Origin: Vulcanimicrobiota bacterium
GTDB taxonomy: Bacteria; Vulcanimicrobiota; Vulcanimicrobiia; Vulcanimicrobiales; Vulcanimicrobiaceae
DNA length: 64,000 nucleotides
Assembly: GCA_963830545.1 (NCBI GenBank)
Contig: CAWHMK010000002.1
Location: forward strand, 25,749 to 89,748
Direction of reading: 5' to 3'
Shown: positions 7,975 to 42,100 of the stretch, one piece after another
Position numbering within the stretch: the first letter of the stretch is position 1
How the letters are laid out: each line of letters opens with the position of its first letter
Notes under the pieces: generated by a model
The model's database searches: none
Told to the model about the DNA's origin: nothing
What the model saw: only the letters and a program-made list of their open reading frames with translations
Translations under genes and position numbers: made by a program

Positions 7975-8523
7975 TTACCGTTGCAGTAACGCCTCGATGT
8001 TGAGTTCTATGCGCACTTCGTCGCTGACCACGACGCCGCCCGTTTCGAGCGCGGCGTTCCAGGCCAAACCGAAATCTTTCCGGTTGATGGTCGTGTGCGC
8101 GCTGTAACCGACGCGCTGTCCGCCCCAGGGGTCGCTGGCGCGGCCCTCAAAACTCGCGGCCAACGCGACCTGGCGCGTAACGCCGTGGATCGTCAGGTTT
8201 CCGTGCACGGTGAAGTCGTCGGGCGCGCCCTCGATGCGGGTGCTATCGAAGGTGAGCGCCGGGTATTTTTCGACCTCCAAGAAATCGGCGGACTTCAGGT
8301 GGGCATCGCGCTGCTCTTCGCGCGTGTCGATGGAAGCGGCGTCAATCGTTACGTTGACGGCGCTGGGCAAGTCGCTGTCCGGGAGGACTTCGATGCTTCC
8401 CTGGAAGGCGGCAAAGCGGCCGCGCACTTTGGTGATCATCAGGTGCCGGACGACGAATTCGACCGTAGTATGGCCCTGATCGAGGGAGTAGGTGAGCTTT
8501 TCTTGTGTTTCCGTGGTCGTCAT
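7975..8523 (-). CDS. YceI-like polyisoprenoid-binding protein
   Basis: 182 aa. HTTVEFVVRHLMITKVRGRF .. LTIHGVTRQV .. FGLAWN matches the YceI family pattern. Confidence 0.8.
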   Translation of the reverse strand: MTTTETQEKLTYSLDQGHTTVEFVVRHLMITKVRGRFAAFQGSIEVLPDSDLPSAVNVTIDAASIDTREEQRDAHLKSADFLEVEKYPALTFDSTRIEGAPDDFTVHGNLTIHGVTRQVALAASFEGRASDPWGGQRVGYSAHTTINRKDFGLAWNAALETGGVVVSDEVRIELNIEALLQR

Positions 8524-8591
8524 GATACAGTCACTTTTACATACCTACTTACAGAACACAAGTACGCACCCGAAAGTAGCCAAGTTACCAC

Positions 8592-8981
8592 ATGGAAACC
8601 AAGACCCTCCCGCTTCCCAGCGACGCCGACGTTTATCAGGGCGACTGCCCGACCCGCACGATCCTCGACCGCATTGCGGACAAGTGGACGACGCTCATCA
8701 TCGGCATACTCGCGCAAAGCGAGCGGCGACGTTTCAACGAGCTCAAACGTCTGATCGGCGGAATCTCGCAGAAGATGCTCACTCAGACCCTGCGCGATCT
8801 CGAGCGCGACGGTTTGGTAGAACGCACGATGTACGCCGAGATTCCGCCGCGCGTGGAATACGCGCTCACACCGCTCGGCAAAACCCTCTGCGAACCGATC
8901 GGCGCGCTCACGCAATGGGCGCACGATCACATCGGCGAGGTCAGGCAAGCCCAGTCGGACTTCGACGGCAAAGCCCGCTGA
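8592..8981 (+). CDS. HxlR-family winged-helix transcriptional regulator
   Basis: 129 aa. CPTRTILDRIADKWTTLIIGIL .. FNELKRLIGGISQKMLTQTLRDLERDGLVER. Divergent from the yceI block. Confidence 0.85.
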   Translation: METKTLPLPSDADVYQGDCPTRTILDRIADKWTTLIIGILAQSERRRFNELKRLIGGISQKMLTQTLRDLERDGLVERTMYAEIPPRVEYALTPLGKTLCEPIGALTQWAHDHIGEVRQAQSDFDGKAR

Positions 8982-12814: not shown

Positions 12815-14200
12815 CTAATGGGTCGGCGGCGGTGTATTCGGAAAAATGACGTGGGGCGTGATGAGAAAAACGACCTCGTCGCGCGTACGCGTATGCTCGC
12901 GGTTCTGAAAGATCTTTCCGAAAACGGGAATGTCCGCCAGAAACGGAATTTTCGTCACCGTTTGTGAGTCGATGTCGCGAAGCAGGCCGCCCAGCACGAT
13001 GGTCTGATTGTCCTTGACGCGCAAGGTCGAATCGACTTTGCGATTCGCGATCACGGGATACCCGCCGACGAAGCCTTGAATTGCGCTGTACTCCGGATGC
13101 ATCTCCGCGGTAACGCTCCCATCTGGGCCGATCGTCGGCGTCAGCCTCAGCTTCACGCCGACGTCGACGAATTGCACTTGCTGCCCGCCCAGCCGGGCAT
13201 CGTAGTACACGACCGGATACGTTTGCCCGATGAGCAAGTCCGCTTCTTTATTGTTGATCGTCACGAGCTTCGGCGTGGCCAGAATTTGCGCGCGGCCTTG
13301 GCTCACGAGTGCATTGAGCGTCGCATTCACGGCGATGGAGTTGTGGGCGAAGGCGTACGTGGCGGCACCGCTTATGGGCTGGCCGGACAAATCGTAGCCG
13401 CCGAACTGCACGCCGACGTTGCTCTGCTCGTTGATGGGTTCGATGTCCGCCACTCGAACCTCGAATAAGACTTGCGGACTTGGAACGTCCATGCTGCGCA
13501 GGAATTGTGCGGCGGAGTGCTGCGTCTCTTCGTTGCCGCTGACGACGATGGCATTCTGCGCGTCGTCGGCGACGTACGATCCGTCCGGAAGCACCCCTTT
13601 GAGCGCCGAATCGACCTCGGATGGTTTGAGATACCGCAGCTTGTAGACGTGAGCCAAGTTTTCCGAACCGGCGGCGTACGCCGGTTCATCGAGCGCCGCC
13701 ACCAGTTGTCGTGCGCGCACGATCGTGTCGGCGTTGCCCGTAACGATCACGCTTGCGGTCCGCCGATCTGCTACGATGACGGTGCCGTCCGGAAGACCCG
13801 AAGCGATCTCTTTGGAGACGTCGCCGGGGCTCGCATGCGAAAGCCGGAGGACAACTGTCTGAGCGCCTTGCGGATCGCCTTGGCCGCCGTAGCGCCGGTT
13901 CATCGAATCGCTGCTTCCGATGATGAGAATGCCGTTCTCGCGGCGCACTTGCAGGTCGTGGGACTGGACCAGCGCGGTAAGTGCATTCTCGAACGTCACG
14001 TCGTGCAGGTGCAAGGTAACCGTTTCGGGTTTGATTGATGAATCGGCAACGACGTTCGTGCCGGACTGCGCGGCGAGCAGCGCTATGACGTCGGCAAGCT
14101 GTGCGTCCTGGACGTCGATGCTGATGCGGGCACTTTGAGCGCCGCACGGAAGTCGAACGGCAACGAGCAGCGCGGCCACTGCCAAAAGCTTGCGCATCAT
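12815..14200 (-). CDS. pilQ: Type IV pilus secretin
   Basis: Start ATG 14200 (MMRKLLAVAALLVAV signal) overlapping the upstream stop (ATGA). Secretin C-domain ATPKLVTINNKEADLLIGQTYPV .. KIPFLADIPVFGKIFQ. Confidence 0.9.
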   Translation of the reverse strand: MMRKLLAVAALLVAVRLPCGAQSARISIDVQDAQLADVIALLAAQSGTNVVADSSIKPETVTLHLHDVTFENALTALVQSHDLQVRRENGILIIGSSDSMNRRYGGQGDPQGAQTVVLRLSHASPGDVSKEIASGLPDGTVIVADRRTASVIVTGNADTIVRARQLVAALDEPAYAAGSENLAHVYKLRYLKPSEVDSALKGVLPDGSYVADDAQNAIVVSGNEETQHSAAQFLRSMDVPSPQVLFEVRVADIEPINEQSNVGVQFGGYDLSGQPISGAATYAFAHNSIAVNATLNALVSQGRAQILATPKLVTINNKEADLLIGQTYPVVYYDARLGGQQVQFVDVGVKLRLTPTIGPDGSVTAEMHPEYSAIQGFVGGYPVIANRKVDSTLRVKDNQTIVLGGLLRDIDSQTVTKIPFLADIPVFGKIFQNREHTRTRDEVVFLITPHVIFPNTPPPTH

Positions 14201-14685
14201 CGACGGGGCACGTCTAAAGCGAGCACTTTCCCGTTCTGCAGGCGCACCCCGGCGCGGTCTATGGCCAACACACGCTCGCCCCCGATCGTATCGCCGACGC
14301 CGATGACGCGAACCTGCGATCCGTCGTCGATCAATGCGCGCGGCGATGTGCCGGAAACGATCGCTTTCACCAGCGGATTCAGGGGAACCGTAAAGCCAAT
14401 CGGCTGTCCTCGCGTTACATGCATTCCGACAACCGGAACCGCTGGGTCGGTCTGCGAATACGACGTCGTCTCCGGCACGAACGGATCTCGTGCGACGTTG
14501 ACCGGCTGCGCCTTCCACGTTGCTGTCAGTGAAGGCGAGTTGAAACGCTCGTTCAGCACGCTGCGGCGGTCTGCGAGTTCAAACGAAGAACGTCCGGCAA
14601 GCGGCGCAAGGCACAGCGGTATCGCGCACAGGAACGCAGACAGCTGCAGACAACGCCTGCGCAGCGGATCAGGGAGCGGTCGCAA
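14197..14685 (-). CDS. PilP-like periplasmic pilus alignment protein (positional call)
   Basis: TTG 14685 preceded by AAGGAGG (14698..14692). Signal-like LSAFLCAIPLCLAPLAG. Beta-rich C-terminus GDTIGGERVLAIDRAGVRLQNG. Sits between pilO-like and pilQ. Confidence 0.5.
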   Translation of the reverse strand: MRPLPDPLRRRCLQLSAFLCAIPLCLAPLAGRSSFELADRRSVLNERFNSPSLTATWKAQPVNVARDPFVPETTSYSQTDPAVPVVGMHVTRGQPIGFTVPLNPLVKAIVSGTSPRALIDDGSQVRVIGVGDTIGGERVLAIDRAGVRLQNGKVLALDVPRR

Positions 14686-15271
14686 CGCGCACCTCCTTAT
14701 GTGAATCGGTTCGCAATCGGTACAAGGTCGCGTGAATCGTCGCGTCCAGACGCGGGTCGGAAGCATCTTGGCGGCCTTCTCGGTCGACCATCATCTCTGT
14801 GTCCGAAACGTCTATCAACGTCGAATGATGCGACAGATCTTCGACCAAGCGCAGCAGACTGCGAAACTTCCCCTGCGCGCGAATGGTCAGCCCGGTAGCG
14901 TCCAGTCCCTGGACGGGAAGCGCTCCCGCCGGCACTGGTTCCACCCCAAGAACGGTAGTTTTCAAACTCGCAGCCGACCTTTGCAGCGCGCCAAGAAAAT
15001 CCGCGGTCGTCCCCGAGAGCGTGACGTCGCGAGATATGCGCGCAAGGTCCTCGTCTGCTTGCACTTCGATCTCGTGCAAGCCGGCAGATTCTCGTATGAG
15101 CCGCGCATCTGCAAGCGTTTCACGGTACAGCGTTTCCGTACGCGCGTAGGTCGACGTAATAGCCGCCTGGTAGCGCGATTGCACCAACCAGGATCCGCCG
15201 CCCAGCGCGCAGAGCGCAAGTAACCACACCGCTCGAACGTCGTCTCCAGCGCGAGGACGCAACCCGAGCAT
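14669..15271 (-). CDS. PilO-like pilus assembly protein
   Basis: 200 aa with N-terminal TM (VWLLALCALGGGSWLV), then a coiled segment. Position after the pilN-like gene, 1-nt overlap. Confidence 0.6.
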   Translation of the reverse strand: MLGLRPRAGDDVRAVWLLALCALGGGSWLVQSRYQAAITSTYARTETLYRETLADARLIRESAGLHEIEVQADEDLARISRDVTLSGTTADFLGALQRSAASLKTTVLGVEPVPAGALPVQGLDATGLTIRAQGKFRSLLRLVEDLSHHSTLIDVSDTEMMVDREGRQDASDPRLDATIHATLYRLRTDSHKEVRVATAP

Positions 15272-15828
15272 CAGCGTGCCGCCTCGTCGAGGTGAATCAG
15301 ATAGTTTATCGACGCGAGTCCCGCCGCGGGTTTATCCAGAGTGGCATTCACCAATCTCGGACTATGTACGTTTTTCGCGTGCATGAGTCGGTGCATCACC
15401 GCGCCCAGCACGATCAGATCCTTGGCCTGACCAGAGAGCGCCAGACCATCGTCCTGGTGCGAAATACCGGTCAGCCACGCGTGCGCGGGCAGATCGTTTG
15501 CAATCTCGGCCAGCATGCGGGCATCGGCATCGCCCGATGCGGCGATGCGCCGAATGCCCCGATCGAGGTTCGCCGCGGCGCGAACACGCTCGTAATAGAC
15601 ATTTTGCGCCGCGAGCGCAGTCTGCGCGCGATCGTAGCGCAGTTCGTAAACGGCCTGGACGGCCGCGGCCTCGCGCAAACGGCAAGCCTCAATACTCCAG
15701 GCCCCGCAGACGATCGTCATTGCGCCGGCCAGCGCAAAGAGCGCCGCATGAAATCGCTCGGGAATGTGCGCTTCCAGCAAACGGCTCAGAAAAACCGGCC
15801 GCGCGGCGTGCAGGTAATCGAAACGCAT
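15271..15828 (-). CDS. PilN-like pilus assembly protein
   Basis: Start ATG 15828. Single TM (FHAALFALAGAMTIVCGAW) followed by a coiled-coil. Position after pilM. Confidence 0.65.
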   Translation of the reverse strand: MRFDYLHAARPVFLSRLLEAHIPERFHAALFALAGAMTIVCGAWSIEACRLREAAAVQAVYELRYDRAQTALAAQNVYYERVRAAANLDRGIRRIAASGDADARMLAEIANDLPAHAWLTGISHQDDGLALSGQAKDLIVLGAVMHRLMHAKNVHSPRLVNATLDKPAAGLASINYLIHLDEAAR

Positions 15829-15830
15829 CG

Positions 15831-16781
15831 TCAATTTACACTCCAAAGCGCAAGCCCGGCGGCAAGCGTCCAATCGGGCGCGCTGGAACGAACGACGTCT
15901 TCCGGGTACATGCCGCCTCGCAGCGTGTCGCACACGGGAATTTCGCAATGCGCTCCGGTGGCGAACTCCAGGTCGGCGGCAAGGCCGGTAAGCCTGGCTG
16001 CATTTCCTACCAGCGCAACGCGGCTTACGATCTGCGTCGTTCTGGCCTGCTGAATCAGCGCACCAATATCCGAGAGCAGCGCGGTTCGCGCCCCTTCACC
16101 CCCGCCGGCGGTGCCCAAAATCCGCTTACGTTTTTCGGCGGTGCGTTCGTCCAGTGAAAGTTCGCGCTCGATCCCGCGCGTTACGTCGGCGCCTCCGGCG
16201 TATGCTTGCAGCGTCACCGGCGCGTGCGCCGTGAGAACGTGTAAACTCGTGCGCTGGTGGCCGACGTCGACGATCGCGTGGAAGCCGGGAAGAGCTCGCG
16301 CCAAAGCGCACGCTTCGTGATCGATCGCCACGACCTTCAGCCCTGCCGCGCGGAGAGCGGCTAGGCGGAAAGCGAGAGCCGAGGCCCGAGCGATTCCCAG
16401 TGCCCAGAGACCGGCGTTCGGATCGATCGGATGGACGCGCACGACGCTCTCGTCGGCTGGATAGTCGACGTAACGTGCGGCTTCAAAGCGAGCCGCGCGC
16501 TCGCGTTCCATGCTGGTCATCTTCGGAAACGTGACCGCCCGGAGGAGCGCGTCGGGTTCTCCAAGTGCGCAGACGCAACGCCGCTGCGCGGTGCCCAGCT
16601 CCCGCAATGCGTCTTCGAGGACCGCGGCAACGTATTCAGGCTCGCAATTCACGAACGTGGACGAGGCTGCGGCATCTCGAACCACGACACGGCGAATTCT
16701 GGCCGCTTCGCCCGCGTACTCCGCCTCGCATACGCGAATTCGCGTTGTTCCCAGGTCGATTCCGAGGGGGAGACGGCGCAT
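15831..16781 (-). CDS. pilM: Type IV pilus assembly ATPase-fold protein PilM
   Basis: Start ATG 16781. Actin-like fold LGIDLGTTRIRV .. VVAIDHEACALARAL .. ALVGNAARLTGLA. Confidence 0.85.
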   Translation of the reverse strand: MRRLPLGIDLGTTRIRVCEAEYAGEAARIRRVVVRDAAASSTFVNCEPEYVAAVLEDALRELGTAQRRCVCALGEPDALLRAVTFPKMTSMERERAARFEAARYVDYPADESVVRVHPIDPNAGLWALGIARASALAFRLAALRAAGLKVVAIDHEACALARALPGFHAIVDVGHQRTSLHVLTAHAPVTLQAYAGGADVTRGIERELSLDERTAEKRKRILGTAGGGEGARTALLSDIGALIQQARTTQIVSRVALVGNAARLTGLAADLEFATGAHCEIPVCDTLRGGMYPEDVVRSSAPDWTLAAGLALWSVN

Positions 16782-16783
16782 CT

Positions 16784-17401
16784 TCACAGCGGTTTGCCGT
16801 GGAGCACGACGAGGCTCATCCCTGCTGCCAAGTATGGTGCGAATCGTATCTCCGTTTCGCGGGTTGCTCTGCGGCTCGCCAACAGATACGACGCATACAC
16901 GCCGCCGATGACGAACGCGATGCCGATAGCCTCCATCCCGGGCAGCGCGCCTGCCGCGCCGCCGATGCAGCATCCGAGTTTGACGTCGCCTAGCCCGATT
17001 CCGCGCCCGCGAGTAATCGCGTACAGCGCCGCAAGGACGCCGCCGCCCGAAGCCGCCCCCACGGCGAATCCTTGCGCATCGTGCGCGAAAAGCGACACGG
17101 CGAGCATCGCGAGCACGCTGGGAAGCGTGACGGCGTCAAAGACGTATCCGCACGCGACGTCGCACGCGGCACCCACGACCACGGCACCGAACCCGGCGAT
17201 CAGCAGTGCTTCCGCGAGGGAATTCGGCGTCACGAGCACAGCGATGCAGCCGATGACCGTTCCGGCGAGCAATATCGCAAGTCGCATCCCGCGAAACACG
17301 GAGAAATGCAATCCATACTGCCTGCCCGCAATAACGCCGGCCGTCACGTAGACGCCGTTTGCGATTAGGACGCAGGAGAGGAGCAATGCCGTGTGCGTCA
17401 C
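16784..17401 (-). CDS. Prepilin peptidase (A24 family), short form without methyltransferase domain
   Basis: GAACDVACGYVFDAVTLP and GLGDVKLG catalytic-Asp motifs. 205 aa from GTG 17401 (GTGA overlap with upstream stop). No N-terminal Cys-rich domain. Confidence 0.8.
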   Translation of the reverse strand: MTHTALLLSCVLIANGVYVTAGVIAGRQYGLHFSVFRGMRLAILLAGTVIGCIAVLVTPNSLAEALLIAGFGAVVVGAACDVACGYVFDAVTLPSVLAMLAVSLFAHDAQGFAVGAASGGGVLAALYAITRGRGIGLGDVKLGCCIGGAAGALPGMEAIGIAFVIGGVYASYLLASRRATRETEIRFAPYLAAGMSLVVLHGKPL

Positions 17402-17937
17402 GTACGCCGGTCCTTCAATGCAATCAAGGCGGGAACGTAGTGGGGCCGCATCCGTAGCGCTGCTCGCCACAAGGCAACAGCTGCCGCATGCCGTCCCTGC
17501 CGCTCGGCAGCCCACCCGGCGAAGACGTAATTTTCCGACGAATTTGTAACACGTGCAGAGCGCTCGAAGTCGGCCTGCGCGAGCGCGTACCGTCGCGCGT
17601 GCAGATAGCATAAAGCGCGATCCGCGAGGAGCAGTGCATCGTTTTGATTCACGTCCAGATAGCGCGTCGCGACGGCAATCGCATGTTCGAGCGCGTGTGG
17701 CGAACGCGACTGCATGCTGACGAAAACGTAACGATCTGCTGCAACTTGCGCACCGGGAAAAATGGACAGCGCGCGACGGTACCGTTCGAGCGCCTGCAGA
17801 ACGCTTCCGCGGTACAGGTACTCGTCTCCGCGCACGACGAGCGCCTCGGCTATTTCGCGTCGAAACATCAGTGCGGCGACACACAAGGAGACGATCGCGA
17901 TCCCGAGACGCCGGCCGCGCGAAAACTCGCGGTTCAT
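17398..17937 (-). CDS. Membrane-anchored TPR protein (possible PilF/PilW-type assembly factor)
   Basis: ATG 17937 (ATGA overlap with ccdA stop). TM LGIAIVSLCVAALMF, then TPR-like repeats (ALERYRRALSIFP, AVALWRAALRMRPHY). The functional call is positional. Confidence 0.6.
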   Translation of the reverse strand: MNREFSRGRRLGIAIVSLCVAALMFRREIAEALVVRGDEYLYRGSVLQALERYRRALSIFPGAQVAADRYVFVSMQSRSPHALEHAIAVATRYLDVNQNDALLLADRALCYLHARRYALAQADFERSARVTNSSENYVFAGWAAERQGRHAAAVALWRAALRMRPHYVPALIALKDRRT

Positions 17938-18593
17938 GCGAGCACCGCATAGTAGCCGGATAGCGCGAGCATCAGCGTCGCGCTCACGACCCCGGCGGCT
18001 TGAGCCACTGCGCGCCGCTGCAGCAACATAGTCGTGGCGTTCACACCGAAAGCAGCTGCCGCGATCGGCAATGCATGACCGAGCGAGAAGCAGGCAAGTA
18101 TCGCGCTTCCGTAGGCGATGCTGCCGCTGGCAGAGGTGTATGCGAGAATGCCGAGCACGAGAGGCGTGCAGCATGGAGAAACGACGAGCGCAAACGACGC
18201 GCCGAGCAGCAACGAACCGCCGGCACCGACGTTTTTGCAGCGCTGCAGATGGCCGCACGCTTCGGGTTCTCGCCAAAGCGTCACGAGGCCACCCGCCGCA
18301 AGGGCAGCCGCAACGAGGATGTAAATGAACGCCGAATATTTGCCCGCCGCGCTCAAAAGCGTCGACAGCACGCCGAACGCAGCATACGTCAGCGTCAAAC
18401 CGGTAATAAAAAAGAACGCAAGGGAACGCGCTTGCGCGGGAGTTTTCCCCGCGGTTAATCCGGCGATCGCGATAAACCGCGGCGCGACGCACGGACCGAG
18501 GCTCGAGAGTGCGCCGGCGGAAAACGCGAGCGGCGCCGCATAGACACTGCGGCTGCTGACTGCGGCGAGCCCCTGTGCGATCGGGTCGAACAC
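17934..18593 (-). CDS. ccdA: CcdA/DsbD-family transmembrane thiol-disulfide transporter
   Basis: 219 aa, about 6 TM. The two conserved core cysteines are present (SLGPCVAP, VVSPCCTPL). GTG 18593, 1 nt after the pilin stop. Confidence 0.8.
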   Translation of the reverse strand: MFDPIAQGLAAVSSRSVYAAPLAFSAGALSSLGPCVAPRFIAIAGLTAGKTPAQARSLAFFFITGLTLTYAAFGVLSTLLSAAGKYSAFIYILVAAALAAGGLVTLWREPEACGHLQRCKNVGAGGSLLLGASFALVVSPCCTPLVLGILAYTSASGSIAYGSAILACFSLGHALPIAAAAFGVNATTMLLQRRAVAQAAGVVSATLMLALSGYYAVLA

Positions 18594-18594
18594 G

Positions 18595-19065
18595 TCAGTT
18601 CCCCTGGCCCGACGCGGTCGTCATGCCCCCGGAATTATCGTATTTGATCGTCGTGTTCGCGGTAACCCCGGCCGGCTCGATCGACTTGAGCGTAGCGGGA
18701 TCGTGCGTGCCTGGGCACCAGATCTGATAGGACCAGACCCCGGAGGAGTCTTCTTGCGCCGTCACTTCGTCACTCCCGGACCCGGCGGGGTCGACGGGAT
18801 TTTGATTCCCCATGTACGTTGCCAAACCAGCGATCGCGTTTACGGGTGTCTGCGAAGCGATAGGGTAGGCTTCGTTGTCGGTGTAATACAATTCCATCGC
18901 GGTAGCGATCGTCTTCATGTTGCTCATGCAGGCCGATGTCGCCGCCTGCGCTCGAGCGTGCGTGAAATTCGGAATCAGTATCGCTGCGAGAATCGCAATG
19001 ATCGCGACGACGACCATCATCTCCAACAGCGTAAAACCGCGCTGAGCTTTCATCGATTGCTGCAT
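18595..19065 (-). CDS. pilA: Type IVa (pseudo)pilin
   Basis: Class III signal MQQSMKAQRG|FTLLEMMVVVAIIAILAAILIPNF (Gly-1, Phe+1, Glu+5). 156 aa. Cys46 and Cys117. SD GGAGG upstream. Confidence 0.9.
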   Translation of the reverse strand: MQQSMKAQRGFTLLEMMVVVAIIAILAAILIPNFTHARAQAATSACMSNMKTIATAMELYYTDNEAYPIASQTPVNAIAGLATYMGNQNPVDPAGSGSDEVTAQEDSSGVWSYQIWCPGTHDPATLKSIEPAGVTANTTIKYDNSGGMTTASGQGN

Positions 19066-19091
19066 GGTGCCTCCGAATCGTCAGTGCCCGT

Positions 19092-19763
19092 TCAAGCAGT
19101 CTTGGGGACCCAAACAGGTTGCATCTTTCGAAGAGCGGCTTTGTGCAACCGCGAAATGTGGCGGCGGGAATATCCCATGCGTTGCGAGAGCTCGGCTTGG
19201 CTGTAGCCGTTGCCGTAAAGCGCCAAGATAATCGTCCGCTCCGTCTGCGTGAGGCACGCCAGGGCCGCCTGAGCCATCAACCGGTCCTCACGCTCCTCCA
19301 GCGTGTAACTGTACGGGCCTAGTTCGTGCGGTTGCAACCGGTCGAGCGATTCAGGCACGGCTTGAGCGCGATAACGGGAAAGATCCTCGACCTCCCGAAG
19401 CGTGAGCTGCAAACGGTCTGCAACTTCATACATGCTCGGTTCTCGATGAAGTTCTGCGACCAAACGGTCGTGCATAACCTGATAGCGGCGGTCCAAGTCG
19501 CGAAGCCGCCGCGGTGCCCGCACCAGTCGTTCGTGGTCGCGAACGTAATGCATCAGTTCGCCGACGACGAATAGCCATGCGAACGCCTCGAACGGCGTTC
19601 CCGGCCCCTCGTCGAAACGATCGCAGGCTTTGATGAGGCCGATCGCCGCAATCTGCTCGAGATCGGCGCGATCCGCTCCACGCCGGCAGAATTTTCGCGC
19701 GCCCCGAGCGCAGAGGTACTGATATTCTTCGAAAAGCCGGTCCCGGTTCTCTCGTGCAATCAT
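19092..19763 (-). CDS. Sigma-70 family RNA polymerase sigma factor, group 3 (SigB/SigF/FliA-like)
   Basis: 223 aa. Region 2 DLEQIAAIGLIKACDRFD..FEAFAWLFVVGELMHYVRD. Region 4 HTH YSQAELSQRMGYSRRHISRLHKAALRKM. ATG overlaps the pilC stop (ATGA). Confidence 0.85.
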   Translation of the reverse strand: MIARENRDRLFEEYQYLCARGARKFCRRGADRADLEQIAAIGLIKACDRFDEGPGTPFEAFAWLFVVGELMHYVRDHERLVRAPRRLRDLDRRYQVMHDRLVAELHREPSMYEVADRLQLTLREVEDLSRYRAQAVPESLDRLQPHELGPYSYTLEEREDRLMAQAALACLTQTERTIILALYGNGYSQAELSQRMGYSRRHISRLHKAALRKMQPVWVPKTA

Positions 19764-20981
19764 TTCATATTTCCAATCAGGGTGTAGAGTGGGATGAAAA
19801 TAGCCGCGACGATAAAGCCGACGGCACCTCCGAGCAGTACGATCATCGCTGGTTCCAGCAGCGATCCAAGCGCACTGAGTAGCGTCTCGACGTCGAGATC
19901 GTAGTAATCGGCAACGCGCAGCAGCATAGCGTCCAGCTCGCCCGTTTCTTCGCCGACGCGAATCATTTGAACGAACATGGGCTCGTATAACCCGGATTGC
20001 GCAAGCGGCTCGGAAACGGAAGATCCTTCGCCGAGCGCGTCACGCAACTCGGCCATGCTTCGCCGCAGTGCCGCGCTGCCAAGCCCGCCGCCGACGACGC
20101 CGAGTGCTTCTACCAAGCCGACTCCCGAGCGCAGAAGCGTGCCGAGCGTCCTCGCAAGGCGAGCGACGTTCGCCTTTTTCGCAATCGCGCCGGCAAACGG
20201 CAACGAGAGCGTCACCGCCTCGATTGCCGCACTTCCGCGCCGATCGTTTCGCATCGTTGCGAAAGCAGCCACCGCCGCCAGCGAACAGACTGCCGTACAA
20301 ATCCACACGGCAGGGGAACTCAGTGCCGTGCCCGCTTCGATGAGCGCGGCGGTGATCGGCGGCAGCGGAACGCGCATCTCCGCGTACATGCCGCGAAACA
20401 TCGGAACGATCGTGGTCAGCAAGAAGATGACGAGCGCACCTGCCGCGCACGCAACGGAGGCGGGATATGCGAGCGCAGCAACCACGCGTTTGCGAATGGC
20501 GCGATCGCGTTCCAGTAACGTCGCTATGCGTTCCAGGACCTCCTCGAGAATGCCGCCGAGGCTCGCCGGCTCTGACCATGGCAACGAAGGATTGCGAGAA
20601 CGCTTTCGGATGCCGCGCCATCGCCTCGCTTAGCGGAAGCCCGTTTTCGATGTCGCTGAGGACGAAGCACAAAGACTCGCGCAGCCGCGAATCAGTGCAT
20701 GCCTCGATCGAGACCTCGAGCGAGCGCCTCAGCGGCACTCCGGCGCCGGCCATCGTAGCGACGGACCGGAAAAAGGTCACGAGACTTTTTTGCGAAGCGG
20801 TGCCTGCATGCAGGAGCGCTGTTGCCCGCCCGCGCGCGCTCGCAGCGTGCTCGAACGAGGTGACGTACAGCGCCCGCGTCCGTAAACCGGCAAGGGCGGC
20901 CGAGGCAGAGCCTGCTTGGATGGTGCCGCGAACGAACGCGCCCTGCATCGTGCGCGCGGTGTAGTAGTACGTCCAGTCCAC
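19760..20981 (-). CDS. pilC: Type IV pilus platform protein PilC/GspF (frame interrupted near 20560)
   Basis: ORF 20040..20981 gives the N-part up to ..FVAMVRAGE. ORF 19760..20584 gives ..SLGGILEEVLERIATLLER.. through to the C-terminus. Together 1222 nt = 3n+1. Confidence 0.85.
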
Positions 20982-20983
20982 TG

Positions 20984-22066
20984 TTAGGCCGTGCTTCGAT
21001 CCGGGGGTCGAACGTCGGCGGGGCGATCCGTAGCCGATCGCGCCGCTTCCAGCGTTATTTCGTGCAGCGCCGCCAGATCGGTCAAATGCGCTTCGAGCGT
21101 TTGCATCGCGCTCTGACGGCTGGTGGAAATGATGTTGCGTATTTGGTGCGTCTTACCGTCCCGGATGACCGTCCTGATTGCGTCGTTCGCAACGAGCACT
21201 TCCGCGGCGCATCTGCGCCCCTGTCCCGCTGCACGCGGCACCAGCCGCATGCAGACGACGCCGACGAGCGTTTGCGCGAGTTGCATGCGAACGAGATCTT
21301 GGGCTGCGCTTTCGAATACACCGACGATGCGATCCACTGTTTGCGCCGCGTCACCGGTATGTAAGGTGCTGAGCACGAGGTGACCTGTTTCCGCCGCAGT
21401 GAGCGCCGCGCGCATCGTCGCGGCATCGCGCATCTCGCCCACGAGTATGACGTCCGGATCGCTGCGAAGCGCTCCGGCTATTGCCCTTTCGAAGCTCCCG
21501 ACGTCGCATCCGAGTTCTCGCTGATCGATCACCGACCGATTCGACGCGTGCTCGTATTCGATTGGATCCTCAATGGTGATAATGTGCCGCGCACGCGTGC
21601 GATTGATCGATTCGACGATGGCAGCCAAGGAGGTCGATTTTCCACTGCCCGTCGGTCCCGCGAAAATCACCAGCCCTTGTCCTCTGCCGGCCCACTCGGA
21701 AACAACCGCCGGCAGATGCAGATCTTCCAAATTCGGCACGCCGGGCGAGAGCATGCGTATAGCTAAACACGTTCCGCGCGACGTGCGGTATGCGTGTACT
21801 CGGATGCGGCCGGCTTCGCCCTGCCTGCGGGTAATCGTGGCATCTCCGCTGTTTTCCAGCCGTCTGCGCGCCGCGTCATTCAGCAGCGAGGCGGCGACAG
21901 CGTCCACTTCCTCACGGCTGGGCACGATCGTCGGCTGCGCTTCGAGCGCGCCGTCGATTCGGAGAACCGGCGGAGTGCCCGCGGACAAGTGCACGTCCGA
22001 AGCGCCGCGCAAACGCGCGATACGAAATATCTCATCCAAACGGATCGAGGCGAGCGCAGCCGTCAC
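20984..22066 (-). CDS. pilT: Type IV pilus retraction ATPase PilT
   Basis: Start GTG 22066 (GTGA overlap with pilB stop). GASDVHLSAGTPPVLRIDG, Walker A GPTGSGKSTSL, Walker B ILVGEMRD. 360 aa, no T2SSE_N domain. Confidence 0.9.
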   Translation of the reverse strand: MTAALASIRLDEIFRIARLRGASDVHLSAGTPPVLRIDGALEAQPTIVPSREEVDAVAASLLNDAARRRLENSGDATITRRQGEAGRIRVHAYRTSRGTCLAIRMLSPGVPNLEDLHLPAVVSEWAGRGQGLVIFAGPTGSGKSTSLAAIVESINRTRARHIITIEDPIEYEHASNRSVIDQRELGCDVGSFERAIAGALRSDPDVILVGEMRDAATMRAALTAAETGHLVLSTLHTGDAAQTVDRIVGVFESAAQDLVRMQLAQTLVGVVCMRLVPRAAGQGRRCAAEVLVANDAIRTVIRDGKTHQIRNIISTSRQSAMQTLEAHLTDLAALHEITLEAARSATDRPADVRPPDRSTA

Positions 22067-23524
22067 GCGGCGTCCTCGACGACGAGCACTCGCTCCAATT
22101 CTTCGAGCGACGTCTCGCCTGTCTGTGCGAGATGCAGCCCGTGCGCGATCATGGGTTCGTAACCGCTTTGACGTGCCGCCTCCCCAAACTCGACGCTCGA
22201 CGAACCATCCGCTATCAATCCGCGCAGCATGTCGTTGATGAAGACGCACTCGAACAGTGCGAGCCTGCCGGTGTAGCCCGTTCCCGCGCAAACGCCGCAG
22301 CCTGATGCGCGGTATACACGTGTGCCTGCGTGCAGGCCGAGCTCGCGGGCGCTCGATGCCGGAACCTCGCACGAAATCCGGCATCGCTCGCAAAGCCGGC
22401 GTATCAATCGCTGGGCAATGATTGCCGAAAGACCCGCAGCGATGGTGCGGCGCGAAACGCCGAGTTCGACCAGGCGTTCAACCGCCCGCGGGGCGTCGTT
22501 ACTGTGAAGCGTCGTGAGAACGAGCTGACCGCTCAGCGACGCAGCCGCCGCAACGGAAGACGTTTCCTGGTCGCGCATCTCACCGACCATGATCACGTTC
22601 GGATCTTGCCGCAAGAACGCGCGAAGTGCCGATGCAAACGTGACCCCGGCCCGCACGTTCACCTGCACTTGAGCGACGCCCGGTATTCGCACTTCGACGG
22701 GGTCCTCGACGCTGCACAGGTTTTGCGAATCGACGTTGCGTTGCGCCATCGCAGCGTACAACGTCGTGGTCTTACCGCTTCCGGTAGGACCGCAGGCAAC
22801 GACGAATCCGTGCGGAGCATGAATTGCGCGGGCAAAGCGCTGCAGCATACCCTCAGGCATGCCGAGCGATTCGATGCTCGGAATACCGGCGTAATGATCG
22901 AGTAACCGCAGGACGAGCTTTTCACCGTGAATGGTCGGCATGGAACTCACTCGCGCCTCGATCGATCGACCGTTGCGCTCGATTGCGTAGCGTCCGTCCT
23001 GGGGCTGGCGCCGGTCCGCGATATCCATGCCGGCCAGCAACTTCACGCGCGAAACGACCTGGCCGTACAAGTCGGCGGTCAACAGACCGGATTCGAGCAA
23101 AATGCCGTCGACGCGTTGACGAACGCGGCCGCCTTTACGCGTGGGTTCCACATGAATGTCCGACGCGGCGCTTTGCACCGCACGCTCGTGAATGTCATCG
23201 AGTGCGCGAATCGCCGGAGCATCGTCGCCGCGAGCTGCGACCTCGCCGCTCCACGCGTATGCTTGTGAAAGCTTTTCGTGAATCGCTTCGCGCGAGGCAA
23301 CATAAGTCTCGCACGTGCATTCCGGTCACCAGCCGTACTCTGTCTATCACTTCGCGATCGCTCGCATCCGGCAGCGCGATCGTCAGTTGATTGCCGTCGC
23401 TGGAAAGAGAGAGCACGTCGTGGCGCAGCGCCAGCGACCGCGGAATCCGCCGCAGCGCATCGGCGTCCGGTACGACGGACGCCAAATCAATGGACTCGAA
23501 TGTCCCCTTGTCGATTGCAGTCAC
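22063..23524 (-). CDS. pilB: Type IV pilus assembly ATPase PilB/GspE (frame interrupted near 23310)
   Basis: N-domain ORF 23195..23524 (LALRHDVLSLSSDGNQLTIALPD) plus ATPase ORF 22063..23178 (GPTGSGKTTT, VIMVGEMRD, tetracysteine CERC..CGVC). 1462 nt = 3n+1. Confidence 0.85.
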
Positions 23525-23557: not shown

Positions 23558-23580
23558 TTGGAAACATATACCGTTTCCAA
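23558..23580. promoter_or_regulatory. Perfect 8-bp inverted repeat in pilB 5' region
   Basis: TTGGAAAC-ATATACC-GTTTCCAA, 34..56 nt upstream of the pilB GTG, in the relatively AT-rich 216-bp divergent intergenic region. Confidence 0.3.
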
Positions 23581-23740
23581 GGCCGATAGCAAGTTTTTAC
23601 CACATGATGTCAATACTTCGGTAACATTTCGGGCACCGAGGCCCTTAATGTCCGGCTTCTGAGCGATGCGGGCACCTGCGTTCAGATCGATTCGGTCCGC
23701 GTTCAACGCATTTGCGGCTCTATAAGGGAATACACGCGGT

Positions 23741-24631
23741 ATGCGAAAGGCCCATGTCATCTGCAGGCTCAGCTCTCGGCACGGTCTGGAATACTACCAG
23801 CGTCTCCAGCGCGAGCTCCCGCCGCGCGGGGTCGAGATTACCGAAGCGCACATGGTCCGGCGCCGAAAAGCGCTGAAAAAACGCATTCGGCAAGCGGTGC
23901 GGTCGGGTGCGCGGCTCATCATCGTCATAGGCGGAGACGGCACCCAGACGGCTGCCGTCGCCGAACTCGCGCACACGGATTGCGCGCTGGGAGTCGTGCC
24001 CGCGGGCACCGGGAATAGCTTCGCTTTCAGCCTGGGGATCAAGGACGATCTCGACGCCGCGATCGACACGATCGCCGAAGGGCGCGAGATCCGCGTCGAT
24101 GTCGGCATCGTCAACGGCACGTATTTCGCCAACTTCGCGAGCATCGGATTGATTGCCGACGCAGCGAATCGCACGCCGCGCGGGCTCAAGCGCGTGATTG
24201 GGCCGGTCGCGTACGGAATAGCGGCCATTCAGTCGCTCCTGCACGACCGGCCGTTCGAACTGCGTGTGAAATGGAAGCGCGAAACCCTGAAGATCGTCAC
24301 GCATCAAGCGATCGTCGCGAGCGGACGGTATTTCGGGTGGCAGCCGCTCACGCCGCAGGCGACGCTGCGCAGCGGCGATCTCGCTTTTTTTGCGGCGGAA
24401 GGCGATAAACCCCAAGACGTGATCGCCACGAATGCAGCGCTGTTGCGCGGAGGCCAAACCGAACTGCAGAACGCGCACTATTTCTCCGCGCCGAAAATCA
24501 CGGTCAAAGCCAAACCGAAACAGCCGCTCAACATCGACGGGCACGCGCTAGGAACGACGCCCGCGAAGTTCAGCATCGCACCCAAAGCGCTGCGGGTGCT
24601 CGTACCGCAGGACTTCCGTCCCCACACGTGA
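23741..24631 (+). CDS. Diacylglycerol/lipid kinase (YegS/DAGK catalytic family)
   Basis: 296 aa. IIVIGGDGTQTAA and VVPAGTGNSF motifs. Confidence 0.85.
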   Translation: MRKAHVICRLSSRHGLEYYQRLQRELPPRGVEITEAHMVRRRKALKKRIRQAVRSGARLIIVIGGDGTQTAAVAELAHTDCALGVVPAGTGNSFAFSLGIKDDLDAAIDTIAEGREIRVDVGIVNGTYFANFASIGLIADAANRTPRGLKRVIGPVAYGIAAIQSLLHDRPFELRVKWKRETLKIVTHQAIVASGRYFGWQPLTPQATLRSGDLAFFAAEGDKPQDVIATNAALLRGGQTELQNAHYFSAPKITVKAKPKQPLNIDGHALGTTPAKFSIAPKALRVLVPQDFRPHT

Positions 24632-39192: not shown

Positions 39193-42100
39193 CTATTCGG
39201 GTGAGCCCTCCGAGACATTGGCGGATCCGAACACGCGAGCGAGTTCCGATCGCACGCGAGCGTCCGACGCAATGCCGCGCGGCAAGCGATGCGTACGGCT
39301 TCCTATGCGCGCCATGACCGGGACGGTGCCGGGCCACTCGTCCAGAATTGAAGCGAGCCGATCGACTTGTTCGCGACTGGATACCTGAACGTGCCAACCG
39401 GCGGGCGTACCGGTATAAGCCGGGCGTTCGAACGCAATCACTTCGTTCGCGCTCACCGAGAGTTCGACCGGAGCGTCTTCGCCGTTGTTCGCACCGCGGC
39501 GTTCGCGCATGCGCAGCCGGCCCTTCACGATGAGAATCCGGTCCTGTTCGAACAAACCGCTGACTTGCGGATAGAGCTTCGAGAATACGACCACGTCGAT
39601 CATTCCGGTCGTGTCTTCGAGCTGGGCAATCAGGATCTGCTGCCCCGCTTTGGTGAGCGTGCGCCGCACCGACGTAATCATGCCGGCGATCGTGACGAAG
39701 CTGTCGTCTTCACGCGCGCGCAGATCTTTGACGGCGGCGGCGCCGGTGCGCGAAAGCGCGTCGGCGACGTCGGCGAGAGGATGGCCGGAAACGAATATTC
39801 CGAGCGTTTCCTTTTCCCATTGCAGCGTCTGCATCGTATTCGGCGGCGGTAGGGACGGCAGCGTCGGGCTGAGCGCGTGCGCGACCGCCGGCGCCTCGCC
39901 GAACAGCGAAACCTGCCCCATTTCCTCGTCGCGTGACTCGGCTGCCGCAATATCCATCGCTGTTTCGAGCGCCGCCATTTTTTGCGCCCGATTGCCCGGT
40001 AAGCAATCCAGAGCGCCGCATTTGACGAGCGCTTCGAAGACGCGCCGGTTTACCTGTTTGGTGTCCACGCGTTTCGCGAGATCGAAGAGATCTTTGAACG
40101 CGCCGCCGGCCTCGCGCGCGTCCAGAATCACCTGCACGGCGCCCCCGCCGACGCCTTTGATCGCCGCAAGACCGAAACGAATCCGGTCGCCGACCACCGC
40201 AAAATCCGTGCGCGACTGGTTCAGATCCGGCGGCAGCACGGATATGCCCAGTTTCTTGGCTTCCTCGACGTACTCGACCAGTTTGTCGGTCCGCTCTTTC
40301 ACCGACGACATCAGCGCGGCGAAATACGGCAACGGCTGATTCGCCTTCAGATAAGCAGTTTGATACGCGACCGATGCATACGCCGCGGCGTGCGACTTGT
40401 TGAAGCCGTAGCCCGCGAAGGGTTCGATGAACTCGAAGATTTTCGCCGCGAGATGCTCGTCGATGTCCGAGTGCTCTTTGCACCCTTTGATGAACTTCTC
40501 GCGATAGACGGGAATTTTGTCCTTCTGCTTCTTTCCCATGACTTTGCGCAACTCGTCGGCTTGCCCCATGCTGAAGCCCGCCACGTCGCGAGCCATCTGC
40601 ATGACTTGTTCTTGATAGCATGCGACGGAGTACGTTTCCGAGAGGATCGCCTCGAGTTTGGGATGCAAATAGGACGGCTTTTGGCGTCCGTGCTTGACTG
40701 CGACGTAGGTGGGAATCCACTCCATCGGACCGGGCCGGTATAACGCAACCAGCGCGATGATGTCGTTGAAATCGGAAGGGCGCAGCTTCCGTGCAGACGC
40801 GGACGTACCCTTCGGATTCCAGTTGGAACACGCCCATGGTCTCGCCGCGCGAAAGCATGTCGTACGTGCGCCGATCGTCCTCGGGAATATGCGCGAGGTC
40901 AAAGTTCGGGTCGGTCGTGCGCCGGATTTCGTCGACGGCATTCTTCATGACGGTCAGGTTGCGCAAACCCAAGAAGTCCATCTTGAGCAGCCCGATGCGC
41001 TCCGCCCACACCATGTCGTACTGCGTGTTCACGCCCGTATCGCTTTTGGCCAGAGGCGCGTATTCTACCAGCGGCCCGGGCGAGATCACTACGCCCGCTG
41101 CATGGGTGCCGGCGTTGCGCGCCAAACCTTCGATAACTTTTGCCGTATCGAGCAGGCGGCGGATCTCGGGCGACATCGCATACAGGCTTTTCAATTCCGG
41201 AATTTGCTCGAGTGCTTGCGCGATGGACATGCCGCCGGGACCGGAGGGAATCAACTTTGCAACCCGGTCGACGTCGGGCAGCGGCACCGCAAGCGCGCGC
41301 CCGGCGTCGCGAACGGCCGCCCGCGCAGCCATCGTGCCGAACGTAACGATCTGCGCAACGCGGTCGGCACCGTACTTTTCCGTGACGTACTTAATGACTT
41401 CGTCGCGCCGCTCGACGCAGAAATCCGTATCGATATCCGGCATCGAGATGCGCTCCGGATTCAGAAAGCGTTCGAAGAGCAGATTGTACTTGAGCGGATC
41501 GAGGTCCGTGATCTTCAAGCAGTATGCGACGACCGAGCCGACCGCGGAACCGCGGCCCGGCCCGACCGGAATGTCATGATCCTTTGCGTATTTGATGAAA
41601 TCCCACACGATGAGGAAGTACGACGCGAAGCCCATCTTCAGGATGACGTCGAGCTCGTATTCGAAGCGCTCCCGCAAAGATGCGTCGTTTGTTGAGCGCT
41701 CGACACCGTACCGGTCGGCCAGTCCCCGCTCGCACACCTCGCGCAGATATTCTTCTGCGCTTTTTTCTTTCTGCGGCTCGTCTTGAGGCACCGGAAACGC
41801 CGGCAGATGATAAATCTTCTCGGGAATACGGATGTCCACGCGTCGCGCGATTGCGGCCGTGTTTTCGCACGCTTCCGGAAGATCGGCCCAGAGCTCGCGC
41901 ATCTCCGCGTCGCTCTTCACGTAGAACTGATCGGAGTAGAACTTCATCCGGCTGCTGTCGGAAACGGTCTTGCCGGTTCCGATGCAGAGAAGCACGTCGT
42001 GCGCCGGCGCGTCGTTCTGAACCAAGTAGTGCGAATCGTTGGTCGCGACGAGCGGAATGTGCAACTCGCGTGCGACCTTCACGAGCCCTTGGTTGATCAC

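Follow-up and report, generated by a model that had tools for sequence, protein, structure and literature searches.

The DNA analysed here, called the window, is a stretch of 64,000 nt from contig CAWHMK010000002.1 of assembly GCA_963830545.1, which comes from an uncultured soil bacterium of the phylum Eremiobacterota. On its minus strand, the window contains a type IV pilus gene cluster with the order pilB-pilT-pilC-sigma-pilin-ccdA-like-TPR-peptidase-pilMNOP-pilQ, where an open reading frame (ORF) for a sigma factor of 223 aa (19092..19763) is placed between the genes of the platform protein and of the major pilin. The sigma ATG (19763..19761) shares the tetranucleotide ATGA with the TGA of pilC (19762..19760). 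Its own TGA is found at 19094..19092, followed by a gap of 26 nt (19091..19066), with GGAGG at 19074..19070, up to the pilin ATG at 19065. A first-pass annotation of this DNA had described a group-3 sigma factor between pilC and the pilin gene with these coordinates, overlap, gap and Shine-Dalgarno (SD) sequence, and all of them were confirmed in the sequence.

The sigma factor and its junctions

The 223-aa protein has the layout of group-3 sigma factors, with regions 2 and 4 present and with region 1.1 and a long N-terminus absent. Pfam recognizes Sigma70_r2 (47 bits) and Sigma70_r4 (46 bits) above their cut-offs. The annotation had listed region 3 as well, which remains sub-threshold, with 21.2 bits against a cut-off of 25.3 and a match restricted to profile positions 11-44. 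Among sigma subfamily profiles, the best NCBIfam model was TIGR02980 (SigB/F/G), with 148 bits along positions 2-223 of 227, and the FliA/WhiG model TIGR02479 gave only 79 bits, below its cut-off of 189.6. The profile scores were indecisive as a test of SigF membership, since TIGR02980 outscores the SigF model NF005644 for Eremiobacterota proteins, and a tree was needed. The nearest solved structures are PDB 8x6g chain H (E 4e-30) and 1l0o chain C (E 4e-19). Orthologues of the same genus have 236 aa, the window protein being 13 N-terminal residues shorter (a deletion of ~39 nt, 19724-19763), and the shortened gene nonetheless keeps the ATGA overlap with pilC.

Conservation of the gene order

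We sampled 36 loci of relatives from 27 genera, in three families of the same class (f1, f2 and f3, with f3 being class-level relatives). Their best sigma homologue is found between pilC and the pilin gene in about 29 loci and just upstream of pilB in 4, being off-pilus in the remainder, so the sigma gene is pilus-linked in 33 of the 36. Every f1 and f2 locus with adjacent pilC and sigma genes presents the -4 ATGA overlap, and in f3 a gap of 1-19 nt separates them. When GTDB species representatives were searched with a profile built from these orthologues, 80 independent loci came up, almost all in Eremiobacterota, with full or partial pilus synteny in ~45. Among the source names of the homologues are Baltobacteraceae and Vulcanimicrobiaceae. 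The position is not a local oddity, since either pilC-sigma-pilin or sigma-pilB is conserved across three families of Eremiobacterota. With both the synteny and the 4-nt overlap conserved across the phylum, the earlier view of the sigma gene as an integral and translationally coupled part of the pilus operon holds.

Some loci depart from this arrangement in other ways. In L025 and L029, the sigma and pilin genes share bases of their stop and start codons (ATGA/GTGA). Some database proteins (P0115 and P0118, 382-388 aa) contain sigma domains and a prepilin N_methyl motif in one chain; they may be genuine fusions, or may result from frameshifts or from gene calls that read through the stop. In L033, L034 and L040, the DNA between sigma and pilB appears, as judged by eye, to encode a lytic-transglycosylase-like protein; there the pilin gene directly follows pilC and has no GGGCAY motif.

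A promoter-like motif before the pilin gene

A bipartite motif, GTC(T/C)nn-N14-GGGCA(C/T)T, recurs where the sigma and pilin genes meet in the relatives, at 23 sites in 22 genomes. The window copy, at 19109..19083 of the minus strand, consists of GTCCCC, a 14-nt spacer and GGGCACT, and straddles the sigma stop codon. We trained a position weight matrix (PWM) on the 23 sites and found a match before the pilin gene in 16 of 29 out-of-sample loci, compared to 9 matches in 434 kb of same-strand background. Most of the out-of-sample loci without a match carry GGGCAC, TGGCAC or GGGTAC before the pilin gene. As for the shorter GGGCA[CT], 34 of 53 loci have it within the 104 nt that precede the prepilin Gly codon, compared to an expectation of ~3 (0.055 per locus). 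In families f2 and f3, the entire motif is intergenic, with spacers unrelated in sequence, and it is therefore not explained by coding constraint.

We rejected a sigma-54 reading of TGGCAC/GGGCAC, since the sequences inspected lack both the GG-N10-GC spacing and a TTGC element at -12. Between sigma and pilin, the sigma-28 element GCCGATAA was not found, with up to one mismatch allowed. Distinct GTTT-N-GGGTAT sites occur before other genes of the window genome.

The f3 relatives have a conserved leader of ~140 nt between the GGGCAT promoter and the pilin gene (…CCGGCGCG…ACGCACGACGCGAA…GCGGCGCGCGGCCGTCTG…), for example in L048:3079-3260, L052:7702-7885, L053:7735-7900 and L051 (~8435-8610). A search of the loci of class-level relatives against Rfam, for a riboswitch in the long pilin leaders, returned no matches. 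This leader may be an undescribed structured 5' untranslated region.

Relationship to cyanobacterial SigF

A maximum-likelihood tree was built from 93 sequences with IQ-TREE under LG+C20+F+G4 (support given as UFBoot/SH-aLRT). The pilus-type sigmas of Eremiobacterota form one clade (51 sequences, 99/91), those of Cyanobacteriota, including the true SigF, another (28 sequences, 96/99), and both are united in a joint clade of 79 sequences (99/99). The canonical SigB of Eremiobacterota (8 sequences, 99/98) is outside the joint clade and, in a quick tree, grouped with sigmas of other phyla. The window genome contains such a second paralogue, a canonical SigB/F/G protein (TIGR02980, 288 bits) within an rsbV(STAS)-rsbW(kinase)-sigB operon at C1:1331412-1332947 (C1 is another contig of this assembly; C2 is the one with the window). 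Judging from the tree, the embedded sigma is the Eremiobacterota counterpart of cyanobacterial SigF, placed as its sister and not nested within it, and not a member by curated score. As a sister of the SigF clade, its function is therefore of an already known kind.

In Synechocystis, SigF directly and exclusively transcribes the pilA1 promoter, with a core of TAGGC (-32) and GGGTAA (-12) (PMC2532724), and cyanobacterial SigF has been found to transcribe pilA1 directly in several works (PMC2532724, PMC6495340, PMC7690835). Among the motility genes of Nostoc punctiforme, pilA alone shows a stringent dependence on SigF; it is also one of the most highly expressed genes (PMC6495340). The Synechocystis factor also influences the exoproteome and exopolysaccharide (PMC7690835). 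The statement in the first-pass annotation that pilin transcription is known to depend on sigma-54/PilSR or the housekeeping sigma is thus incomplete, given SigF and pilA1 in these works and WhiG (PMC8325347). In Eremiobacterota, the sole cultured member moves via type IV pili (PMC9758169).

The linkage is also found in Cyanobacteriota. One locus of the GTDB scan belongs to a Sericytochromatia metagenome-assembled genome (MAG) with the order pilB-pilT-pilC-sigma. In a sample of 101 Cyanobacteriota genomes, pilT-pilC precede the best sigma homologue in 23 of 30 loci, and psbA, a photosystem reaction-centre gene, is absent from all 10 tested genomes with this linkage. The photosynthetic Cyanobacteriota have a bona fide SigF (403-410 bits on NF005644; psbA present in all 4 genomes checked out of 8), and sigF does not adjoin pilus genes in any of the 8 sampled loci. 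Two pilin genes of the Sericytochromatia genome have GTTTAG-N14-GGGAAG and GTTTAGGC-N11-GGGTAT ahead of them. This promoter form, GTTTAG(GC)-N13/14-GGG(A/T)A, bridges to the TAGGC/GGGTAA of Synechocystis, with a spacing that is off by ~2 nt.

Other genes preceded by the motif

A regex scan revealed only three real prepilin genes in the window genome, the major pilin gene and two unlinked ones, encoding proteins of 477 aa (C1:2718698-2720131, plus strand) and 180 aa (C1:841395-841937, minus strand). All three have GGGCACT at 9-20 nt before the start codon (9-10 nt in the unlinked two), a heptamer that has only 162 occurrences in the 2.9-Mb genome when both strands are counted (5.8 Mb in total). 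Eight orthologues of the 180-aa prepilin gene present GGG(C/T)ACT exactly 9-10 nt before the start, with no SD, and this placement looks like the geometry of a promoter that gives a leaderless mRNA. A second copy of the motif faces a divergent lipid-kinase gene upstream of pilB (Table 1). It was observed in the reverse complement of the aligned pilB-upstream regions, is conserved in 6 genomes of 2 genera and always has the N14 spacer; the lipid-kinase gene may belong to the same regulon as a candidate second target. GGGCACT is further found ahead of genes for putative lipoproteins and secreted proteins. The lipoprotein gene adjoining the 477-aa prepilin gene has the full motif, with GGGCACT at C1:2721431 (minus strand).

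Operon genes and assembly quality

The features around the sigma gene are listed in Table 1.

Table 1. Position and basis of the features identified around the sigma gene in the window.
Feature	Position	Strand	Basis
SigF-type group-3 sigma factor, 223 aa	19092..19763	-	domains, tree and syntenic orthologues
ATGA overlap, pilC stop/sigma start (translational coupling)	19760..19763	-	sequence; conserved in relatives
-35-like hexamer GTCCCC, within the last sigma codons	19104..19109	-	motif in 22 genomes
-10-like GGGCACT, 17 nt before pilin ATG	19083..19089	-	GGGCA[CT] before prepilin in relatives
Major prepilin, 156 aa, G|FTLLE, SD GGAGG 19070..19074	18595..19065	-	Pfam N_methyl, 40 bits
pilC, platform protein	19760..20981	-	Pfam T2SSF on both halves
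pilT, retraction ATPase	20984..22066	-	Pfam T2SSE, 157 bits; syntenic in relatives
pilB, extension ATPase, operon gene 1	22063..23524	-	Pfam T2SSE, 362 bits
Conserved element TATTGACA-N3-TGTGGTAAAAA upstream of pilB, not of GGGCAY type	23594..23615	-	10 aligned upstream regions
Genes downstream of pilin, one transcription unit with it	12815..18593	-	Pfam; order conserved in family f1
ccdA/DsbD-like	17934..18593	-	Pfam DsbD_TM
TPR protein	17398..17937	-	Pfam TPR
Prepilin peptidase-like	16784..17401	-	Pfam Peptidase_A24
pilM, pilN, pilO, pilP-like, pilQ	after the peptidase gene, within 12815..18593	-	Pfam PilM_2 (pilM)
Second motif copy GTCCGG-N14-GGGCAC, facing the divergent lipid-kinase gene	23650..23675	+	regex match, C2:49398
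DAGK_cat/YegS-type lipid kinase gene, divergent	23741..24631	+	Pfam DAGK_cat 80 bits, YegS_C 52 bits

Upstream of pilB, the block TATTGACA-N3-TGTGGTAAAAA is invariant across the aligned regions of the 10 genomes, and we presume it to be the primary promoter of the operon. It is followed by a hairpin at 23560-23578 (minus strand), GGAAAC-ggtatat-GTTTCC in the window, whose sequence differs among genomes. In the window genome, the region ahead of pilB gave no PWM match to the pilin-type promoter.

Two genes of the operon are broken by +1 frameshifts. The one in pilB (~23305-23308, mapped against the PilB of the same genus) splits the N-terminal from the ATPase domain, and the other is in pilC (~20561, mapped against the PilC of L020). 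Compared to a genome of the same genus, the frame also changes in dnaE (~40766-40788), an sdhA-like gene (~46305) and a methyl-accepting chemotaxis protein gene (~32919). Because five window genes in ~60 kb are shifted by one base, the essential dnaE among them, the frameshifts in pilB and pilC are most probably assembly indels derived from long-read errors and not decay. We rejected a pseudogene reading of pilB and pilC, given that dnaE and the sdhA-like gene are likewise frameshifted against the same-genus genome. The 95-kb contig C2 terminates in 16S rRNA sequence (C2:94251), with an identical copy on C1 (C1:5180), and for this reason it was taken as a chromosomal piece and not as a plasmid. 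The assembly breaks there at rRNA repeats, and the segment with the pilus operon could easily be absent from short-read bins.

Anti-sigma candidates

The annotation had seen no anti-sigma or STAS gene in the window, and six-frame searches agree. In the genome searches, no RsbW-type kinase (HATPase_c_2) was found on contig C2, whose only STAS gene is outside the window (C2:16403-16711). The neighbors typical of TIGR02980 proteins, an RsbW/SpoIIAB kinase and a STAS antagonist, are absent at the embedded sigma, and no anti-sigma candidate is conserved beside the sigma gene in more than 100 related loci. Several orphan RsbW/STAS genes are found elsewhere in the window genome.

Proposed role of the embedded sigma

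We consider it probable that the embedded gene encodes a SigF-type sigma that is dedicated mainly to prepilin genes and works, within the type IV pilus operon, as a feed-forward amplifier. Transcription would begin at a primary promoter ahead of pilB, with the TATTGACA...TGTGGTAAAAA element, and yield a pilB-pilT-pilC-sigma transcript. Since the sigma start overlaps the pilC stop, the sigma would be translated in step with the platform protein through the ATGA overlap. Together with core RNA polymerase, it would then fire the internal GGGCACT promoter and raise the transcription of pilin, whose copy number has to be far above that of the motor. The ccdA-TPR-pilD-pilMNOPQ genes and the unlinked minor prepilins would be raised too, as probably would the divergent lipid-kinase gene, and bulk pilin would be produced only while the assembly platform is being made. 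To the gene order, coupling geometry, orthology and conserved placement of the motif observed above, this proposal adds promoter recognition by the embedded sigma, an internal transcript and a physiological rationale, which we infer from sequence. The first-pass annotation had imagined a feed-forward or checkpoint circuit. The feed-forward part fits the cognate-type promoter before the pilin gene, whereas the FliA-like checkpoint lacks any anti-sigma candidate.

Several observations weigh against a dedicated pilin sigma. The protein does not reach the curated cut-off of either relevant model (148 bits on TIGR02980, cut-off 234; 106 bits on the SigF model NF005644, cut-off 261). Its link to the GGGCA(C/T)T motif is one that we infer, the -10 resembles the SigB-type GGGTAT, and the canonical SigB paralogue could read the motif. 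A genome-wide scan with the -35/-10 PWM gave 121 matches, compared to 111 in a reversed-sequence control; the prediction of a regulon by PWM from a single genome was uninformative and was dropped. Seven loci with the sigma upstream of pilB, and with the pilin gene directly after pilC, have no PWM match. No autoregulatory motif of the pilin type was found upstream of pilB (coding strand) or of stand-alone sigma genes, the latter carrying a TATTGCGC...TGGTATATAAC promoter instead.

The distribution of the sigma also includes lineages with no pilus. A derived clade of Eremiobacterota keeps the sigma with no pilus genes (no T2SSF in 5 of 5 genomes), and the single-contig genome G021 retains it next to a pilB remnant. 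In the derived clade, the gene adjoins aroC-aroK-aroB (L073-L117, e.g. L079:7800-8702), and its proteins are nested among the pilus-linked sigmas in the tree. The derived genes encode a sigma with an extended N-terminus and have a conserved TATTGCGC...TGGTATATAAC promoter as well as a hairpin in the leader. Since the sigma is kept in pilus-less lineages, it must serve other genes there and is not strictly a pilus factor. The Synechocystis SigF likewise serves genes beyond pilin. In the opposite situation, G001, G004 and G010, which are fragmented MAGs (82-94% complete), have no pilus sigma, pilC or pilin gene, and nonetheless keep GGGCACT before the orthologue of the minor prepilin gene. Either the operon contig is missing from these bins or another sigma is used; we favor a missing contig because the absent genes share one operon and ~10% of absences are expected (~4 of 41 from MAG incompleteness alone). 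The co-absence of sigma, pilC and pilin in G001, G004, G010 and G018 was rejected as independent evidence, given that the genes form one operon and MAGs are incomplete, which is supported by the minor-prepilin promoter retained in three of those MAGs.

These last genomes are also part of what can be said for a different view, in which the embedded sigma has a broader cell-surface or stress role and owes only the timing of its expression to the operon, and the GGGCAY pilin promoters are read by the SigB paralogue or another sigma. The -10 GGG(C/T)A(C/T) is near the SigB-type GGGTAT, the motif persists before the minor prepilin gene in the three MAGs with no detected pilus sigma, and the pilus-less lineages keep the sigma beside aroC with its own sigma-A-like promoter. 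The action of the Synechocystis SigF on exoproteome and exopolysaccharide (PMC7690835) and the extra GGGCACT sites before putative lipoprotein and secreted-protein genes point in the same direction. However, a single missing contig explains the absences in these incomplete MAGs, and the truly pilus-less genomes tested (G021, G018 and G041-G043) have no minor prepilin gene either. The phylum-wide linkage of sigma, pilC and pilin, together with the orthology to a SigF that transcribes pilA1 (PMC2532724), favors a direct link, and we regard the broader role as rather unlikely.

It is very improbable that pilin is expressed solely by read-through from pilB to pilQ, with the motif being conserved C-terminal coding sequence, an RNA processing signal or a protein-binding site. 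The junctions are tight or overlapping along the entire operon, including the sigma stop and pilin start of L025 and L029, and the -35 half is within coding sequence in family f1. Nevertheless, the fully intergenic motif of f2 and f3, with its unrelated spacers, the GGGCACT-type heptamer that precedes the start of an unlinked prepilin gene in 8 genomes in a leaderless geometry, and the bipartite N14 architecture, which fits SigB/F-type promoters, are not what such a reading would predict. We give hardly any credence to a FliA-like checkpoint, where an anti-sigma exported or sequestered by the finished pilus machine would hold the sigma inactive. Its basis is the analogy drawn in the first-pass annotation, plus the several orphan RsbW-like/STAS genes elsewhere in the genome. 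Against it, no adjoining anti-sigma is conserved in the more than 100 loci, the CcdA-like and TPR genes of the operon show no anti-sigma domains in Pfam, and no checkpoint was reported for SigF and pilA1 in the cyanobacterial works (PMC2532724, PMC6495340, PMC7690835).

Regarding the origin of a SigF-type pilin sigma, we tentatively suggest that SigF is an ancient pilin sigma, which may have stood fourth in an operon, pilB-pilT-pilC-sigF, of the common ancestor that Eremiobacterota share with Cyanobacteriota. The coupled form would then be ancestral, the unlinked sigF of photosynthetic lineages a dispersed descendant, and the sigma of pilus-less Eremiobacterota a repurposed one.

Comparison with known systems

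Apart from SigF in cyanobacteria and WhiG in a few actinobacteria, no sigma control of a major pilin has been characterized so far. Actinobacterial WhiG drives type IV pilus clusters through TAAA-N15-GCCGATAA promoters (PMC8325347). The WhiG/sigma-28 factors of Rubrobacter and Actinoplanes (PMC8325347, PMC12871210) are likewise group-3 sigmas from Terrabacteria with promoters in the pilus cluster. However, they belong to another subfamily and use another promoter, as indicated by the low FliA/WhiG score of the window sigma (79 bits vs 189.6) and the lack of GCCGATAA before its pilin gene. WhiG is also controlled by the anti-sigma RsiG, which is armed by cyclic di-GMP, and no counterpart was seen for the window sigma. 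The FliA-FlgM system likewise has a sigma inside an appendage gene hierarchy with the filament subunit as a late target. Its anti-sigma is exported, whereas the window system has no FlgM-like protein and differs in sigma family and promoter, the likeness being restricted to the feed-forward order. The SigB/SigF partner-switching modules share with the window sigma the best profile (TIGR02980) and a similar promoter architecture (GTTT-N14-GGGTAT type). In contrast, these modules have an adjacent kinase and STAS protein, which the window sigma lacks, and the canonical rsbV-rsbW-sigB version forms a separate clade.

The closest known system is the cyanobacterial SigF (Synechocystis slr1564, Nostoc punctiforme SigF, NF005644), which shares the domain layout, forms the sister clade and has the major pilin gene pilA1/pilA as a proven direct target (PMC2532724, PMC6495340). 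Its promoter combines a G-rich -10 (GGGTAA) with an upstream TAGGC, compared to GTC(T/C)(A/G/C)n-N14-GGGCA(C/T)T here, so the sequence of the -35 and the spacing differ. The Synechocystis SigF is autoregulated, whereas no pilin-type motif was found upstream of the window operon. In photosynthetic cyanobacteria, sigF is off-pilus, and the window gene comes fourth in a pilus operon and overlaps the stop of pilC. In Synechocystis, suppressors of a pilD deletion map to sigF, and the accumulation of unprocessed prepilin is harmful (PMC8546353). A machinery operon encoding the sigma for its own high-copy subunit would prevent prepilin from building up in cells with no processing and assembly machinery.

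Compared to the literature searched, what is new is the occurrence outside Cyanobacteriota, a sigma gene embedded in the operon and translationally coupled to pilC, the corresponding linkage in non-photosynthetic Cyanobacteriota and a promoter that shares sequence with the 3' end of its own sigma gene. The SigF-pilin module is extended to a phylum, Eremiobacterota, of which only one member has been cultured, and a sigma tied to the platform gene, also in non-photosynthetic Cyanobacteriota, offers an evolutionary explanation for the otherwise unexplained link between SigF and pilA. The motif GTC(T/C)nn-N14-GGGCA(C/T)T is testable and can be used for annotating pilin regulons in MAGs.

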